64,000 nt of DNA, taken from assembly GCA_026770705.1 (NCBI GenBank), contig JANJGN010000035.1, positions 2,604,001-2,668,000 on the forward strand. Reading direction: 5' to 3'. This document shows, piece by piece, positions 346 through 55,868 of this stretch. Each line of letters starts with the position of its first letter. Within the stretch, counting starts at the first letter, position 1. Under the pieces are notes generated by a model. The model ran no database searches. It was not told where the DNA came from and saw nothing but the letters and a program-made list of their open reading frames with translations. The translations under genes were made by a program, and so were the position numbers. The stretch is from Isurus oxyrinchus. Taxonomy: Eukaryota.

Positions 346-384
346 AGTTGACGTTTCGAGTCCTCATGACCCTTCGACAGAACT
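346..384 (-). ncRNA. Minimal type I hammerhead ribozyme motif (CUGUCGA core variant)
   Basis: Reverse complement reads AGTT-CTGTCGA-A-GGGTC-ATGAG-GACTC-GAAAC-GTC-AACT, giving stem I, stem II and a palindromic ACGT stem III. Confidence 0.75.
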
Positions 385-1824: not shown

Positions 1825-1863
1825 AGTTCTATCGAAGGGTCATGAGGACTCGAAACGTCAATT
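1825..1863 (+). ncRNA. Hammerhead motif copy with mutated core (CUAUCGA)
   Basis: Same motif in the inverted pLTR with a G5-to-A change, so probably inactive. Confidence 0.6.
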
Positions 1864-8816: not shown

Positions 8817-8898
8817 GTAGTTGTGGCTAAGTGGTTAACGCGATGAAGTAGAAATCCATTCGGGTATTCTTGTGCAGATACGAATCCTGTCGACTGCA
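8817..8898 (+). pseudogene. tRNA-Ser(AGA) pseudogene
   Basis: 82 nt colinear with tRNA-Ser-AGA (gtagttgtggctaagtggttaacgcgatgaagtagaaatccatt...cgaatcctgtcgactgca). T-loop reads GATACGA instead of GGTTCGA. Confidence 0.85.
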
Positions 8899-22383: not shown

Positions 22384-22455
22384 CTCCTCGTCGGGGAATT
22401 GAACCCCGGTCTCCCGCGTGACAGGCGGGGATACTGACCACTATACTAACGAGGA
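22384..22455 (-). tRNA. tRNA-Asp-GTC: tRNA-Asp(GTC), apparently intact
   Basis: Reverse complement TCCTCGTTAGTATAGTGGTCAGTATCCCCGCCTGTCACGCGGGAGACCGGGGTTCAATTCCCCGACGAGGAG: 72 nt, all stems pair, A and B boxes intact. Confidence 0.96.
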
Positions 22456-22645: not shown

Positions 22646-22840
22646 AACAAAAGCAAAAATTGCTGGGAAAACTCAGCAGCTCTGACAGTATCTGTAGTGA
22701 GAAAGGCAGAGATAACGTTTGGAGTCCACAGAGTATTGCGGCCTTGAAACGCTAACTCTGCCTTTGTCTCCACAGATGCTGTCAGAGCTGCTGAGTTTTT
22801 CTAGCATTTTTTTTGTTTTAGATTTCCAGAATCCTCAGTA
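22646..22840. mobile_element. ~195-bp palindromic element made of two inverted PLE 3' ends
   Basis: Arms ~22646-22720 and ~22746-22818 are reverse complements (gaaaactcagcagctctgacag / ctgtcagagctgctgagttttt). Flanked by ctgggcttcat and ctggacttaat. Confidence 0.8.
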
Positions 22841-29760: not shown

Positions 29761-29832
29761 TGTGATGGTTGGGAATTGAACACGAGTTAACTACTTGTAA
29801 AGCAGCTACACTCACCACTATACCATCTGCAC
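29761..29832 (-). pseudogene. tRNA-Gly(TCC) pseudogene
   Basis: Reverse complement GTGCAGATGGTATAGTGGTGAGTGTAGCTGCTTTACAAGTAGTTAACTCGTGTTCAATTCCCAACCATCACA is colinear with tRNA-Gly-TCC. Anticodon now reads TAC and the acceptor stem is broken. Confidence 0.85.
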
Positions 29833-34370: not shown

Positions 34371-34621
34371 TTTAGTCAGGAATATTAGGGGTGAAATGAA
34401 TACAGTGTCACGCATTATTGTCTAACATATATTTGGAAAAAGACTCTTTCTAATGAAGTTCTGTTGAAGAGTCACATTCTGCTCAAAGCATGAACTCTTT
34501 TTTTCTTTCCACAGATACTGCCAGAAGAGTTGCAGCAATTTCTGGTCTTTCAGCAGAATAAGCAGTGTTTTTTTTTAAATTACATCTTTCCTTGTTATGG
34601 TTCTTTTAATTATAGCTAATC

Positions 34622-36206: not shown

Positions 36207-36417
36207 AGCAGAATACTGCGGATGCTGGACACCTGAAATAAAACCAGAAAACCTGGAAATACTCATCAGATCAGGCAGCATCTGTGCAGAGAGAAACAGG
36301 TTTAATGTTTCACGTCATGACCTTTCATCAGATGAAACGACCTAAAATATTATTTCTCTTTCTCCCTTCACAGATGCTTCCTGATCTGCTGATTGTTTCC
36401 AGCATTTTCTGTTTTTC
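36207..36417. mobile_element. Palindromic PLE-end element
   Basis: Inverted arms (ggaaatactcatcagatcaggcagcatctgtg / cacagatgcttcctgatctgctgattgtttcc) centred on a minus-strand CTGATGA...GAAA hammerhead remnant. Confidence 0.75.
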
Positions 36418-39872: not shown

Positions 39873-40087
39873 TCGCAATACTGCGGATGCCTGGGTTACG
39901 AAATAAAAATGGAAACTGTTGAAAACCTGAGCCGATCAGGCAGCGTCTGTCAAGAGAGAAAAGCAAAGTTACCATTTCAGGTCGATAACTTGTCATCAGA
40001 TGAAGCGACCTGGAACGGCAATTCTGTTTCTCCCTCCACAGATATTTCCTGATCTACTGAGTATTTCCATCATTTTCGGTTATTTCA
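39873..40087. mobile_element. Palindromic PLE-end element (paralogue of 36207-36417)
   Basis: Same inverted arms, same tcatcagatgaa centre and homologous flanks. Confidence 0.75.
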
Positions 40088-40309
40088 TGTGGATTTACTT
40101 CTTGTTCAGTAGGCTCATTTGTTCTATGATTGAAACGTATACTGTAATGTGTTCAAGTAGATCACTCTTTACACCTCAAATCCTCAATGGAAATATGCCT
40201 GTATATTGCAATGTTAAAGATACCGTTGCAAACACCATCATGTCAGGTGGGATACACATTACATAAAACTCAATAATAAATCATATGTAGAGAAAAAAAA
40301 CACCCTTCG

Positions 40310-43124: not shown

Positions 43125-45570
43125 CTGGTGCAAGAGAGGTCAAGGAAGGGATGGGAAGTGTTTGAGAGGAACCATGTCATAAAAATAGAGGGATGTAAAT
43201 TGGAATCAAAATTAATTTATTTTTCCAGGTCCAGACGAGAGCGTGAAGCAGCACCAAAGCGGTCACTGAAGAACCAGGGAAAGAGGTTTGGGAGGGGACC
43301 AGAGTAGGACTGGAAAAAGGAATGTAACACATACTCCATAAAGATACAAGCATAACTGAGGCCCATGCGGGTACCCATAGCCACACATTGTATTTGGAGG
43401 AAGTGAGTGGAGTTTAAGGAAAATTGTTCAGTGAGAGAACTTGTTCAGCCAGGCAGAGGAAAGTAGTGGTGGATGGGGATTGCCCGTACATCTGTTCGAG
43501 GAAGAAGTGGGGAGCCCTCAGACCATCCCGGCGGTGGATGGATGTGTAGAGGGATTGGACGTCCATGGTGAAGAGGAGGTTGTTGGGGCCAAGGAAATGG
43601 AAATTATTGATACAAAATAGGGTGTCAGAGGAATCATGGATGTAGGAGGGAAGAGATTGGACAAGGGGAGAGGGAATGGAGTCATGATTGCAAGAAATGA
43701 ATTCCTTGGGTCTGGATCAGGCTGACAAGATCAGTCTGCTGGGAGAGTCCTGTTTGTGGATTTTGGGTAGGAGGTAGAGGCAGGAGGATGGAGTTTGTGA
43801 GACTATGCGGTTGGATGCTGTGGAAGCAAGATCTCCAGAGGAGATGAAAAAAGTGACCATCCTAGAAACAATGGCTTGATGTTCAGTGGTAGGGTCATGG
43901 TCCAGCGGGTGGTAGGAGTTGATGTTCAGCCTCTGCGAGGTAGAGGTCAGTGTGCCAGAAAACAACAGCACCATCCGTGTCAGCAGGTTTGATGACAATG
44001 TCAGCATTGGACCTGAGAGAACAGAGTGCAGCAAGTTCAGAGAGAGGCAAGTTAGAGTGGGTGAGAGGAGCTGAGGAATTGAGACAACTGATGTCACACT
44101 GACAGTTCTCAATTAAAAGACCAAGAGCAGGTTAGAATCCAGAGGGAGGCGGCCAAGTGTACAAAGAATATTGGAGGTGGGTAAAATGATCCGTTGAATG
44201 GGGAGAGAATTCCTGCCCAAAGAAGTGAGCATGGAGACGAAGGCGGCTAAAGAAGAGTTCAGCATCGTGCCAAGCCCGAAATTCATTGAGGTGAGGGCAT
44301 AAGGGTATGAAACTGAGACCTTTCCTTAGGACTGAACGTTCAGCATCAGAGAGTGGAAGGTTAGGGGTTATGGCGAATACATGGCCGGGGTGGGATTGGA
44401 AGGTGGGTTGTGGACTGAGGGTTGGGCAGTGGTGCATTGTCCTGGATGGGCATTGGTGTCGATGAATTGTTGGAGCTTGCCTTCCTTTGTACCAAAAAGA
44501 AAGAGACATAGTTTCTTTTTGTGGCTTGGATGGGACGAAGAATGAAATGTAACTGGGGGCAAAGACAGCTTAGAAATAGGGTGCATCGGTGCTGCTGGAT
44601 GGAGAGTTCGATTGTGTTCATATGGCAGAGCATGGCACTGAATTTGGATCTCAGGATGCGACAAGAACAGAAGTCCAAGGAGCATTGTAAGTAAAAGAGA
44701 TAACCTTACAATGGGTATGAAACATGAGGGATGGAACTTCAGTTGAAATCCACGTGGGGTAAGTCGGGGATGGAGAGAGTCACCGAGGAAGGAAATATGG
44801 CTGGGAAAGCGAGTTTATGTAAACACCGTGTCAAACACCAGTAGAGAAATGGAAAGCAATGAAGGTGAACAGGGCAAAAGGGAGAGGCGCAAATCCTGTC
44901 AGAGAGAAGAGCAATACTTCTTCAAGGTAGGCAAGACCTCACTATGGCTTTCCACCTCATCACACCACCCTGCTTTCCTGCCGAACTGTCTGTTCTTGGC
45001 CTGCTGCAGTGTTCCATTGAAGCTCATAGCCAACTGGAGGAAAAGCACCTCATCTTCCGACTAGGCACTTTACAGCCTTCCAGACTGAAAATTCAGTTCA
45101 ACAACATTAGATCTTGAACTCTCTCCTCCTTTGCCTGCCACTTTCAAATCCCCTTTTTAACAATAATTTATATATATATTTTTCTTTTTCCACCTTTTCC
45201 ATTATTTTTAAATGTATTTCCACCCATAGTTTTATCGCTATATTTTAGTGTATTTGGATCCCATATCCCCAACCCCATGCCCACTAGGGCAATGTGTACT
45301 GTGCTGTCCTGCTTTCTACCCTTAATGTCACAATTGACACGCTTCTTAGCTAATATCAACACCGTCAGCACCTCTTTGTTATTTAGTCTGTTACATCTGT
45401 TGGCAATCTCCACCTATCACTGGCCCTCTCTCCAGCTGTACCTGTCCCACCACCCCTTAAACCAGCTAATATTTCACCTGCTTTCTATTTTTCCTTAGTA
45501 CTGTTGAAGGTTCGTACGGACTCGGAATGTTAACTGTATTCCTCTCCACAGATGATGTCAGATCTGCTGG
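43125..45570 (-). mobile_element. Older degenerate Penelope-like element with inverted 5' pLTR
   Basis: 43125-44935 is the reverse-strand homologue of ~51920-53750 (LPLSDAERSVLRKGLSFIPL..., LYLLPKIHKQ), with frameshifts. 44935-45570 is a plus-strand endonuclease C-terminus plus pLTR with a hammerhead remnant at 45501. Confidence 0.9.
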
Positions 45571-49775: not shown

Positions 49776-51920
49776 AGGGAGGTGAGTGAGTAACAGTGTG
49801 ACAAATTGGGGAATTGAAAGTGTATGAGGGGGATTGTGAGAGGCTGATCAAGTTTTTGAGGTGGTTGGAATGCGAGAGACTGAGTGAATATGTGGACGGG
49901 AGCACAACAGGCTGAGTGAGTGTGTGGGGCCGAGTGTGTCTTTCATAATATGAGAGACTGCCTAATGCACAGTCCCAGATTACTCACTAGCTCCGAATAC
50001 CAGACAGCAACACATACACGCTGCCATTCACAGTGGGTGAGGGTGAGGCATATGAGATTCTTAAGGCTGGGAGTGAGCCGGACAGACATACACAGTCTGT
50101 CTCGCAGAATAGTATTTCTACACCATAATTAGATAACAATCTGACGCACGTCCCTTCAGCTTTCATATGCTGATAAATGATAAGGCCTCCATTTTCTCAT
50201 TCAAAAGTTACTCTTAAGGTAAAAACTTCCTTGCCCATGTTTCTGAGTAAGCTGTCTGACATAACTTTTGCTTTGCAAAACATTTTTCTGTAATTTACTA
50301 ATTGCCTGGAGTTAAACATTGTATTCTGTTCTTTCCTCCTGAACACTTTAATGAAACACAGTGCAAGCTATCTGAGCTTCATCACATTATCTAGGACTTT
50401 TTAACCTCCTGTCCTTCTTGTTTCAGCCTATGAACATGTGGTCTCATTATCACACGAAATTAAAACAGCCCGGGATGCTCCTTCTGCAATGCTGCTGTTG
50501 AAGGCACATCCTCATGCTGCTCAAATTACAGAGATATCTTCCACATACGTTACCAGCTATACTATTATCCAAAATAAGATGAACCGCTCCAATGGGCAGT
50601 TTGCCCATTCTCCAACATTCAGCTCAACTGTTTTCCATTTAGTCATTAAATTTAACTTCCACTATAGAATAAGGTTAGGATTTTCACGAAACCCACTTAT
50701 TGTTCCGTGCGCCTACTCAGAGAGATTATTATCTCTCTGAACGACAAATATCACTACCCACGACATTAAGAATTGAATAGCCCCTGTGCCTCTTATAAGT
50801 TAACATCTTTCCTGACTCCAACCTGTACACATGGAAAGTGTATCCGCTCACACACAAAATCGTTGAACGTTTATGCACCCGTCTCTCCCTTGAGTAGATT
50901 ATGAACACATTCCCCTTCTTAACCTTTCACTGATTCTTCCTGTTTTTCGTCCACAGAAACCATTTTTCCTGCAACAAAACCTCAGAGGTTCAGTACATTT
51001 ACCAGCAGTACTTTTCTGCAGACCAATAATTCCAACATATTTCCCTGCAATTTCCAACACGCTGACTTCTAGTGACCGACATTATTAAAATAAAATAAGT
51101 TCAATTTTCGAATGTCGCTTCTAACCTCAACCACTTCATTTTTATTCTCAGAGAAAGAAAAGAATAAAACCACTTTTTCGATATTACCCCAAATGCTTCT
51201 CGTCCTTCCTTTCCTTTTCCCACTTTCTACCCTTCTCTGGTTTAAAATGCTGAAACAAACAGTTTAGCTCTATGAACTAATTCATAATTATTAGCTGTCT
51301 GTACGGTTTGGCTTAGCATTCGAACCCTTTCGTTCTCCAGATGAATTCTCATTACCAAACCCATTGAATCTTTAAATTCTTCCAAAAGAATTACTTCTAT
51401 AAATGCTGCATATGTTTTCTCTATCTTTAATTCTCGTATCCACCGATCACAATTAGTTTGTTTTACTCTCACAGTCAGCAAACGGTTTCCCAGAATTTTG
51501 TCCCACATTCCTAAATTGCTACCTGTATGCCTCAGGTTATATGTAAACAAAATAGTCTTTTCACCTCTCCATAATTTACCCATGCCTCGTCTGACAGCGA
51601 ACAATAAACCTCATATGCTCAAATCAACTCCCTCCCCGCCCGCCCGCCCCTCTCAACCTAGATTTTGACAACAATGCCCAGTTTCCTTGTGTCCAAGTCC
51701 TCATTTTGCTCCTTCTCAATTAAAATAAAGTTTCTCAAACTTTGGAATGTCTGTCGAAGGGTCATGAGGACTCGAAACGTCAACTCTTTTCTTCTCCGCC
51801 GATGCTGCCAGACCTGCTGAGTTTTTCCAGGTAATTCTGTTTTTGTTTTGGATTTCCAGCATCTGCAGTTTTCTTTGTTTTTATCTCTGGTTTTAATTGA
51901 CTGCCACTGCTCTTCAAGAA

Positions 51921-54676
51921 ATGCCTACCTCCTTGAAGAAGTTCTGTTCCTCTCTGCGACAAGATTTCCGTATCTCTCTGTTGCCTTGTTCACCTTCTTT
52001 GCTTTCCATTTCCCTCCTAGTGTTTGACAAGGTGTTTATTAAAACCCGCTTTCACAGCCATATCTCCTTTCTCAGTGACTGCCTCCGTCTCCGACTTACC
52101 CCACATGGATTTCAACTGAAATTCCACCCCTCATCTTTCGAACCCACCCAGGTTTACCGGTATCTCCGGGACATAAAACGTTTCTCAGACTGCTGTTCCC
52201 GTCACATTCTGAAATCCACACTCAGTGCCATGCGCCGCCATATGAACACACTCGAGCTCTCCCTCCAGCAGCACCGCCGTACCCTTTTTCAAAGCTGCGC
52301 GTGCCCCCAGTTTCATTTTATCCTTCGGCTCATCCGACGCCTCAACAAGAAACTTTTTCTCTTTCTCTCAACTGCTAAGGAACGCAAGCTCCAACAACTC
52401 ATCGACACCAACACCCATCTAGGACCCTCCACCCCAGCCTGTCCCTCCGTCCCCACCCCATCTTCCAATCCCAGCCCCAGCCGTGTATTCACTATACCCC
52501 CTGACCTTCCCCTCTCCGATGCTGAACGTTCAGTGCTCAGCAAAGGACTTAGTTTCATACCCTTACGCCCTCACCTCAATGAATTTCGGGCTCGGCATGA
52601 TACTGAACTCTTCTTTCGCCGTCTTCGTCTCCGGGCTCACTTCTTTGGGCAGGAGTCCTCTCCCAGTTCAACGGATCCTTTTACCCATCTCCAATATTCT
52701 CCCTCCACCTGGACCCCTCCCTCTGGATTCTTACCTTCTCTTGATCTTTTCATTGAGAACTGTCGGCGCGACATTAGTCGTCTCAATTTCTCTGCTCCTC
52801 TCACCCATTCTAACCTGTCTCTCTCTGAACTTACTGCACTCCATTCTCTCAGGTCCAACCCTGACATTGTCATCAAACCCGCTGACAAGGGTGGTGCTGT
52901 TGTTGTCTGGCGCACTGACCTCTACCTCGCGGAGGCTGAGCGTCAACTCGCAGACACTTCCTCCTACCTCTCTCTGGACCATGACCCCACCACTGAACAT
53001 CAAGCCATTGTTTCCAGGACTGTCACTGACCTCATCTCCTCTGGGGATCTCCCTCCCACAGCTTCCAACCTGATAGTCGCCCAACCTCGGACAGCCCGCT
53101 TCTATCTCCTACCCAAAATCCACAAACAGAACTGCCCCGGTAGACCGATCGTCTCAGCTTGCTCCTGCCCCACAGAACTCATTTCTCGTTATCTTGACTC
53201 CCTTCTCTCTCCCCTTGTCCAGTCCCTTCCCACCTACATCCGTGATTCCTCTGACACCTTACGTCACATCAACAATTTCCAGTTCCCTGGCTCCAACCGC
53301 TTCCTCTTCACCATGGACGTCCAATCCCTCTACACCTCCATCCCCCACCAGGATGGTCTGAGGGCCCTTAGCTTCTTCCTCGAACAGAGGCCCGAACAAT
53401 CCCCATCCACCACTACTCTCCTCCGTCTGGCTGAACTTGTTCTCACGTTGAACAATTTCTCCTTCAACTCCTCTCACTTTCTCCAAATAAAAGGTGTGGC
53501 TATGGGTACCCGCATGGGCCCCAGCTATGCCTGTCTCTTTATGGGATATGTGGAACATTCCTTGTTGCAGTCCTACCCCGGCCCCCTTCCACAACTTTTT
53601 CTCCGGTACATCGATGATTACTTCGGTGCCGCTTCATGCTCTCGTCGGGACTTGGAAAAATTTATTAATTTTGCTTCCAATCTCCACCCCTCCATCATTT
53701 TCACGTGGTCCATCTCTGACACTTCCCTTCCCTTCCTTGACCTCTCTGTCTCAATCTCTGGTGATAGACTGTCCACCAATATCCATTACAAACCCACCGA
53801 CTCCCATAGCTACCTCGACTACAGCTCCTCACACCCCGCTTCCTGTAAGGACTCCATCCCATTCTCCCAGTTCCTTCGCCTTCGTCGCATCTGTTCCGAT
53901 GATGCTACCTTCAAAAACGGTTCCTCTGACATGTCCTCCTTCTTCCTTAACCGAGGTTTCCACCGACGGTCGTTGACAGGGCCCTCAACCGTGTCCGGCC
54001 CATCTCCCGCGCATCCGCCCTCACGCCTTCTCCTCCCTCCCAGAAACATGATAGGGTCCCCCTTGTCCTCACTTATCACCCCACCAGCCTCCGCATTCAA
54101 AGGATCATCCTCCGCCATTTCCGCCAACTCCAGCACGATGCCACCACCAAACACATCTTTCCTTCACCCCCCTTATCGGCATTCCGTAGGGATCGCTCCC
54201 TCCGGGACACCCTGGTCCACTCCTCCATCACCCCCTACTCCTCAACCCCCTCCTATGGCACCACCCCATGCCCACGCAAAAGATGTAACACCTGCCCCTT
54301 CACTTCCTCTCTCCTCACCGTCCAAGGGCCCAAACACTCCTTTCAAGTGAAGCAGCATTTCACTTGCATTTCCCCCAACTTAGTCTACTGCATTCGTTGC
54401 TCCCAATGTGGTCTCCTCTACATTGGAGAGACCAAACGTAAACTGGGCGACCGCTTTGCAGAACACCTGCGGTCTGTCCGCAAGAATGACCCAAACCTCC
54501 CTGTCGCTTGCCATTTTAACACTCCACCCTGCTCTCTTGCCCACATGTCTGTCCTTGGCTTACTGCATTGTTCCAGTGAAGCCCAACGCAAACTGGAGGA
54601 ACAACACCTCATCTTCCGACTAGGCACCTTACAGCCTTCCGGTCTGAATATTGAATTCAATAACTTTAGGTCGTGA
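51921..54676 (+). CDS. PLE reverse transcriptase-GIY-YIG endonuclease polyprotein with one frameshift at ~53960
   Basis: Motifs IKPADKGG, LPKIHK, GRPIVS, MDVQSLYT, QIKGVAMG, RYIDD and FLDL. Adding one C at ttc|cac gives GFPPTVVDRAL, open in frame through PCPRKRCNTC and VYCIRCSQCGLLYIGET to the TGA at 54676 (918 aa). Confidence 0.92.
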
Positions 54677-55067
54677 GCTCCCTCCCCCATCCCCACCCCC
54701 TTTCTGTTTCCCCCTTTTTTCCCCTTTTTTTTCCCTATAAATTTTATAGATTTTTCTTTTCCCACCTATTTCCATTATTTTTAAATATTTTAAAATCTTT
54801 TATGCTCCCCCCACCCCCACTAGAGCTGTACCTTGAGTGCCCTACCATCCATTCTTAATTAGCACATTTGTTTAGATAATATCACCAACTTTAATTTTAA
54901 CACCTATGTGTTCTTTTGTACCATTGTCACTGACATCTTTTGATGATCTGCTTCTATCACTGCTTGTTTGTCCACACAAGCACCTCTGTCTCTCTCTCTC
55001 TCTCCGCCCCCCGACACACACACCTTAAACCAGCTTATATTTCAACTCTTTCTTGGACTCGAAATCA

Positions 55068-55106
55068 AGTTCTGTCGAAGGGTCATGAGGACTCGAAACG
55101 TCAACT
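55068..55106 (+). ncRNA. Minimal type I hammerhead ribozyme motif in the 3' pLTR
   Basis: AGTT-CTGTCGA-A-GGGTC/GACTC-GAAAC-GTC-AACT; predicted cleavage after C55102. Confidence 0.78.
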
Positions 55107-55868
55107 CTTTTCTTCTCCGCCGATGCTGCCAGACCTGCTGAGTTTTTCGAGGTAATTCTGTTTTTGTTTTGGAATGTCCTGTACAATTTTAAATATCTCG
55201 CCACTGTGCTTTAAGTTGAAGGCTTTCCCCTCATCAGGACTTTCCCCAGAACCTTATATCTCCTTTTGTTTTTAACTCCCAGCTTTAAAGCTGTTGTTCC
55301 CTGTCTCTTAACTCCATTCTCTCTTCCATTACTAATATTTGCCTCGAGAGGTCAAGATTTCACGTTTACATTTCTTTTTGTAATAATCTATATATTTCCC
55401 TTTTTTCCTGTTGCCTCTAGTCCCACTTATTTTCCGTTTCATTTGAATTCATTTTTCCTTATCATTTGCCTTCAATTGAAGCTTTTTCAGTCCATTTGCC
55501 ACCAATTCAAGCCCGTTCATTTCCAACTGAAACATCACAACCTCCATCTCTGATACACTCATATCAGATATCACTTCCAACCTTAAATACCGTCAAAATC
55601 TTCAAATATGTCAGCTTTATTTGCCCCTACAGGTACCCCTAATTGTACATTTCCTGCCAACTCCGTTACCTTGTCCTTTGATACTTTTTGGTAGGAAATC
55701 AGAGTTCTATATTCTACTCCCAAAAAAGGGTTAATCCATGGATACAGCCATTTCATCGTATCACCACTTAAAAAATAACGCAACAATGTCTGAACTCAAA
55801 GCCTTTCTCATGCTCCGTAATCACAAACTTAATATCCGCCAACTCCAAACCAGCAAACAATTTCAAAT

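Follow-up and report, generated by a model that had tools for sequence, protein, structure and literature searches.

The 64,000-nucleotide stretch of Isurus oxyrinchus DNA analysed here (the window) carries, in a terminal repeat of a Penelope-like element (PLE), a motif built like a minimal hammerhead ribozyme in which core position 6 is U instead of A. Is such a motif a decaying ribozyme or a variant kept by a mobile lineage, and what might it still do? The first-pass annotation had described its stems, core and cleavage site, and direct reading of the letters bears out every element. The parts, all on the plus strand, are:

55068-55106, plus strand: minimal type I hammerhead in the 3' pseudo-LTR (pLTR), with U6 at 55075 and a predicted cut between 55102 and 55103
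55072-55079, plus strand: core C3-U4-G5-U6-C7-G8-A9 and an extra A before stem II
55080-55094, plus strand: stem II of 5 bp with G10.1-C11.1 and a 5-nt loop
55095-55102, plus strand: G12-A13-A14, self-complementary ACGT (stem III of a dimer) and C17, an architecture as in PMC4209133
55122-55150, plus strand: conserved downstream box, 0/29 sites changed since the A6U switch

The order within 55068-55106 is AGTT (stem I), CTGTCGA, the extra A, GGGTC/GACTC enclosing the loop, GAAA, ACGT, C17 at 55102 and AACT. A descriptor that ignored position 6 picked out 20 instances in 800 kb but none in any of five shuffles, so that a chance origin of the motif is excluded, and 87% of alignment cells are paired at the motif register as against 50% or less when the register is slid. 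Covariation is slight, 110 of 500 shuffles reaching the observed score, and an Rfam covariance-model search at E up to 1 returned no hammerhead match, either for this motif or for the A6 relics of the window.

PLE pLTR hammerheads (Cervera and De la Pena 2014, PMC4209133) likewise lie in the pLTR in sense orientation to the ORF, and share a short stem I, an extra base after A9, G10.1-C11.1, a palindromic loopless stem III and an NUH triplet. The window motif has stems I and II, the G10.1-C11.1 pair, the additional base, GAAA, an NUH cleavage triplet and, in ACGT, a palindrome capable of forming stem III in a dimer, and it sits in the pLTR of an element encoding reverse transcriptase (RT) and a GIY-YIG endonuclease (EN). 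Its core departs from CUGANGA in having U6, whereas A6 is present in 44/44 alignment rows examined from that study and required by its descriptor; in the accessible part of the paper the sole core variant described is U3-A8, and the rows include no cartilaginous fish. No earlier report of a natural A6U hammerhead was found in the literature searched, the coverage of which was incomplete. The hammerhead of phage Bcep176 (PMC3088659, PMC7151607) is likewise a natural position-6 substitution, slow in Mg2+, but it has C6 in a single phage copy, whereas U6 here marks a high-copy retroelement lineage with preserved ancestors. Judged by its sequence, the motif is thus a lineage-fixed core variant of the known kind of PLE hammerhead, with cleavage as a predicted property. 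Searches based on CUGANGA miss what is the dominant hammerhead-like motif of this genome.

The motif belongs to one insertion, whose parts are:

51750-55170, plus strand: Penelope-like element with truncated 5' pLTR, ORF, 3' pLTR and tail
51897-54350, plus strand: open frame with reverse transcriptase (PF00078, E 5.5e-8), shifting frame before the endonuclease
53951-54676, plus strand: frame with C-X4-C-X2-C linker and GIY-YIG endonuclease (PF01541, at cut-off)
51741-51749, plus strand: left copy of the 9-bp target-site duplication
55168-55176, plus strand: right copy of this 9-bp duplication, overlapping the tail end

RT followed by GIY-YIG is the arrangement of EN+ PLEs, although the copy in the window is frameshifted, and the Cys linker between RT and EN fits the definition of the Neptune/Nematis clades, which suggests that the element is a PLE of that type. 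Such elements (bioRxiv 10.1101/2021.04.23.441226) share with it the succession of RT, Cys linker and C-terminal GIY-YIG as well as pLTRs, inverted truncated copies and a tail; the role of the hammerhead in endonuclease-bearing PLEs is called unclear in the literature, as far as accessible. Both hammerheads of the insertion keep the cut site. Within the 5' part (51802-51836), an ATG lies 20 bases 3' of the cut site and starts a frame of 10 codons that runs up to a splice-donor-like CAG/GTAATT. Its GT form arises roughly when U6 does, older families having C there.

The first-pass annotation had listed U6 cores in the minus-strand copy 346-384 and at 51751, 55072, 45501 and 34461, all of which are confirmed, along with relics retaining CUGAUGA:

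51750-51785, plus strand: 5' copy of the U6 hammerhead, beginning at position 2.1, uncut, lacking most of the stem I 5' strand
346-384, minus strand: young U6C7 hammerhead copy, U6 core at 380
1825-1863, plus strand: young U6 copy with a G5A mutation, additional to those listed before
45497-45535, plus strand: older, decayed U6U7/U17 copy with early-type flanks, core at 45501
34457-34498, plus strand: older, decayed U6U7 copy, core at 34461
36299-36335, minus strand: ancient A6 relic of a different family, CUGAUGA at 36331
39966-40003, minus strand: ancient A6 relic of a different family, CUGAUGA at 39999

The motifs at 51751 and 55072 belong to opposite ends of a single insertion, bounded by the 9-bp duplication, and are therefore not independent copies. 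The CUGAUGA relics are indeed present on the minus strand near 36331 and 39999, but they belong to a much older family with another stem II.

Whether U6 is sporadic was settled by counts over the whole 5.0-Gb genome. A 29-base exact pattern with positions 6 and 7 left free matches 80,057 times, and only 141 of these matches have A6 and 96 G6; among the matches listed (100 of 80,057), 98 have U6 and two C6. Since the A6 count is close to the level of another transversion, residual A6 and G6 reflect background mutation. Copies collected independently of the core by a downstream anchor give the same picture: U6 is found in 95 of the 97 that could be aligned through the core (the remainder of the 141 anchored copies being truncated inside it), and all 20 structurally intact motifs recovered by the position-6-blind descriptor in 80 spaced 10-kb samples (800 kb) have U6. 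Sporadic decay as the source of U6 is ruled out by the 141 A6 among 80,057 matches and by the anchored copies. No living A6 sister subfamily of the young family was seen, the 20 A6 loci inspected looking like scattered revertants. The young family also occurs in contigs of two organisms, with no alternative at position 6 among the letters listed, and contigs from a third organism show A6 alone, at low depth. In a fish metagenome run, a U6 copy carries a distinct set of differences and possibly represents another subfamily or species.

The older forms with U17 preserve the history of the switch. They have 5,232 genome matches with U6 and 2,999 with A6, and the commonest U6 and A6 forms among the U17 matches listed differ at position 6 alone. 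Out of 149 parsed copies, the 86 with upstream homology were placed on a tree over 193 columns, positions 6-7 being masked, and the tree has the shape of a ladder. At its base are 15 A6 copies, with four more intermingled with the earliest U6 copies, and the succession runs from A6A7 through A6U7 to U6U7; above this an A-U pair of stem II becomes G-U, next come a new loop II together with U17C, and last U7C. Nine A6 copies chosen by their match to an A6 pattern are dispersed among the young tips. Mean non-CpG divergence from the group consensus, over seven groups in order, is 11.8, 10.9, 6.0, 4.8, 6.9, 3.9 and 2.1%, the groups being small and mixed (n = 16, 10, 27, 9, 7, 5 and 21); the A6U7 copies thus stand at 10.9%, the first U6 copies at 6.0% and the youngest at 2.1%, a trend which fits the order of changes in the tree. 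The change of A6 to U likely arose once, in the source lineage. U6 had been called recurrent: it does occur in several subfamilies, and is better read as having one inherited origin. The A6 ancestors (L171-L200) carry U17, that is, a GUU site; U17 was fixed in the pattern used to search for them, and 26 of 32 older-group copies found by the anchor agree. C17 arose after the U6 switch, and GUC is the preferred hammerhead cleavage site. A6U7 copies also occur within younger subfamilies (L011, L013, L014, L017, L019, L027), by back mutation or by gene conversion from older A6 copies.

Comparison of the first with the youngest U6 groups shows how the motif fared after the switch, during which time the source lineage diverged by about 14% at near-neutral sites (43/310 upstream pLTR sites and 9/64 four-fold ORF sites changed). 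None of the 23 sites in stem I, core, closing pair and palindrome changed (P about 0.03), and the five changes within the motif are all located at N7, at N17, in loop II or at a stem II site where pairing is kept (P about 0.005; one loop II site was polymorphic and left uncalled). The catalytic positions taken alone (0/10) are not significant (P about 0.2), and early U6 subfamilies were collected mostly by patterns demanding an intact core. The downstream box is as conserved as the motif (0/29), and another function may therefore constrain the whole region. The earlier proposal that U6 is maintained, lineage-specific and recently mobile rather than decayed, together with its call for a count of CTGTNGA against CTGANGA across pLTR copies, is answered by these results: U6 is fixed in the counts, its copies have their place on the tree, and divergence and post-switch constraint agree.

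The 5' ends of copies bear on the RNA from which they were made. Among 212 downstream-anchored copies, 122 have a 5' junction near the motif. Junctions at -7 to -1 from C3 make up 31/81 in U6-type and 11/41 in A6-type copies, as compared with 1/81 and 0/41 at the cut site, and those of U6 copies thin out upstream of the stem I pile-up. Genome-wide, the cut-site junction pattern (three non-matching bases before the first post-cut base) occurs in 231 of 88,874 copies, against 118 and 91 at two flanking control positions, a share of about 0.6% once corrected for the filter. Of 15 such junctions inspected, 10 were inversions, among which several showed microhomology, three were small deletions and two were clean truncations; with 13/15 being inversions or deletions, the twofold local excess at the cut site is largely of that origin, and the cleavage-derived share among copies may be a few per thousand. 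Inversions account for about two thirds of young-family junctions in general. Cut or circular RNA is ruled out as the main route by the scarcity of cut-site junctions, and the copies are not bounded by the cut site as those of a circular-RNA element (retrozyme) are. Because these junctions are nearly absent in U6 and A6 copies alike, the template was uncut both before and after A6U; for the same reason, the missing cut-site ends say nothing about the activity of U6. The pile-up at the start of stem I (55061-55071 and genome loci), observed in U6 and A6 families alike, suggests that the transcript begins at the first base of the ribozyme. An extra cap-derived G at the 5' pile-up was unsupported, occurring in 2/7 cases.

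A closely comparable case is PAc, a Poseidon element of Anolis (PMC11167929), in which a PLE hammerhead likewise precedes an internal RT start. There, reverse transcription starts in the tail, ribozyme cleavage needs protein, and insertion in vitro proceeds without cleavage; as in the shark PLE, uncut RNA is the insertion substrate and cut-site ends are lacking. The scarcity of such ends here fits this scheme, and it speaks against a circular form with its limits at the cut site. PAc differs in belonging to another clade, the accessible part of the report mentions no change of A6, and its ORF begins in stem II, whereas the corresponding ATG here gives an 18-codon frame only.

Folding predictions, which are nearest-neighbour estimates without tertiary contacts, do not single out the active structure. 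The predicted fold of the 39-mer is no better than that of shuffles (z 0.06). At most stages the core is predicted to pair with the stem III region in an inactive helix, and the active swapped dimer, less stable than two monomers by 1.9 to 6.7 kcal/mol across the series, is never the predicted ground state; the window form can pair in this way, at a predicted cost of 4.5 kcal/mol. In a natural A6 revertant carrying C7/C17 the gap widens to 12.5 kcal/mol, with a perfect 5-bp inactive helix, and the misfold in this background is predicted at -11.3 kcal/mol with A6 as against -7.3 with U6. Since A6 would misfold there, a simple comparison of U6 with its A6 revertant is confounded. The energies also predict that the later C7/C17 changes entrench U6.

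Published mutagenesis points to low activity. When the CUGA turn of a type III hammerhead was mutated, every single or double change other than a C3-G8 swap gave low activity, with no rescue in the accessible data (PMC9901934), and U6 may therefore be dead; the natural A6C ribozyme cleaves at below 0.1 per min (PMC3088659) and retains good activity in Mn2+ (PMC7151607). U6 likely makes the motif a slow cutter. The reading we prefer, with a probability of about one half, is that the U6 motif is a weakened ribozyme, predicted to depend on dimerisation or protein, that has been kept under selection. A6 would have changed to U once in the source lineage, and later subfamilies would have inherited U6. 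Reverse transcription would start in the tail and read through the ribozyme, so that only uncut RNA yields copies; as copying needs uncut RNA, a slower ribozyme would be no great burden to the element and may make more template available. The slow cutting that is left, in which the protein of the element probably assists, would trim or turn over tandem transcripts, and it is because this remains useful, we propose, that the rest of the core is kept. It is tempting, although rather doubtful, to go further and suppose that A6U was favoured as a brake, displaced the A6 families and was entrenched by C7/C17, U6 still cutting with protein or Mn2+. If true, this would extend the natural hammerhead consensus and mean that PLE hammerheads are tuned slow for the sake of uncut RNA. 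Natural 39-nt forms survive in this genome as a dated series that covers the switch and the large expansion that followed; two of them differ at position 6 alone, and the series could test whether cutting speed matters to the element.

The strongest competitor, possible and clearly less probable than a weakened ribozyme, is that the motif is catalytically dead and its sequence kept as an internal promoter or as a fold or motif bound by protein. The junctions at -7 to -1 and their thinning upstream look as if transcription started at stem I, an internal promoter is described for Drosophila Penelope (PMC2377424), the equally conserved downstream box would be accounted for, both U17C and U7C replace a G-U by a G-C pair in the predicted inactive helix, and Naiad PLEs are described as multiplying without hammerheads. 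However, the five changes within the motif are confined to positions at which a hammerhead is tolerant, a restriction not required of a DNA promoter, the predicted inactive helix varies between stages, and the start of transcription is deduced from junctions, with the cap-derived G unsupported. It is improbable that U6 merely hitchhiked in a successful lineage, in a motif under no constraint and too young to have decayed: a single lineage was observed, and P is 0.03 for 0/23 and about 0.2 for the catalytic ten, but the flanks, the loop and the linker varied freely (9/48 upstream and 4/15 linker sites) across four or more subfamilies in which the structure stayed the same. Least likely is that U6 makes an alternative core of full activity, restored by C7, C17, loop II, Mn2+ or protein, for although C17 was gained after the switch, A6C is active in Mn2+ (PMC7151607) and U6 escapes the strong misfolding into which A6 is predicted to fall alongside C7/C17, no double mutant in the accessible results of a complete pairwise scan rescues the CUGA turn (PMC9901934), and U6 spread with U7/U17, earlier than the supposed rescuing changes.

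Further traces of such elements were noted elsewhere in the window. The region 279-1925 is a young, inverted and rearranged copy of the U6 PLE family that includes the GIY-YIG end as well as two U6 motifs, and 43133-45569 is an older PLE relic in which an inverted piece of the RT region (82% identity) is joined to the pLTR bearing the 45501 motif. Old head-to-head pLTR pairs lie at 22646-22839, 36236-36416 and about 39900-40090. A tRNA gene with GUC anticodon is found at 22384-22455 on the minus strand (Rfam, 61 bits), and weaker tRNA-like matches are located at 8817-8898 and 29761-29832.
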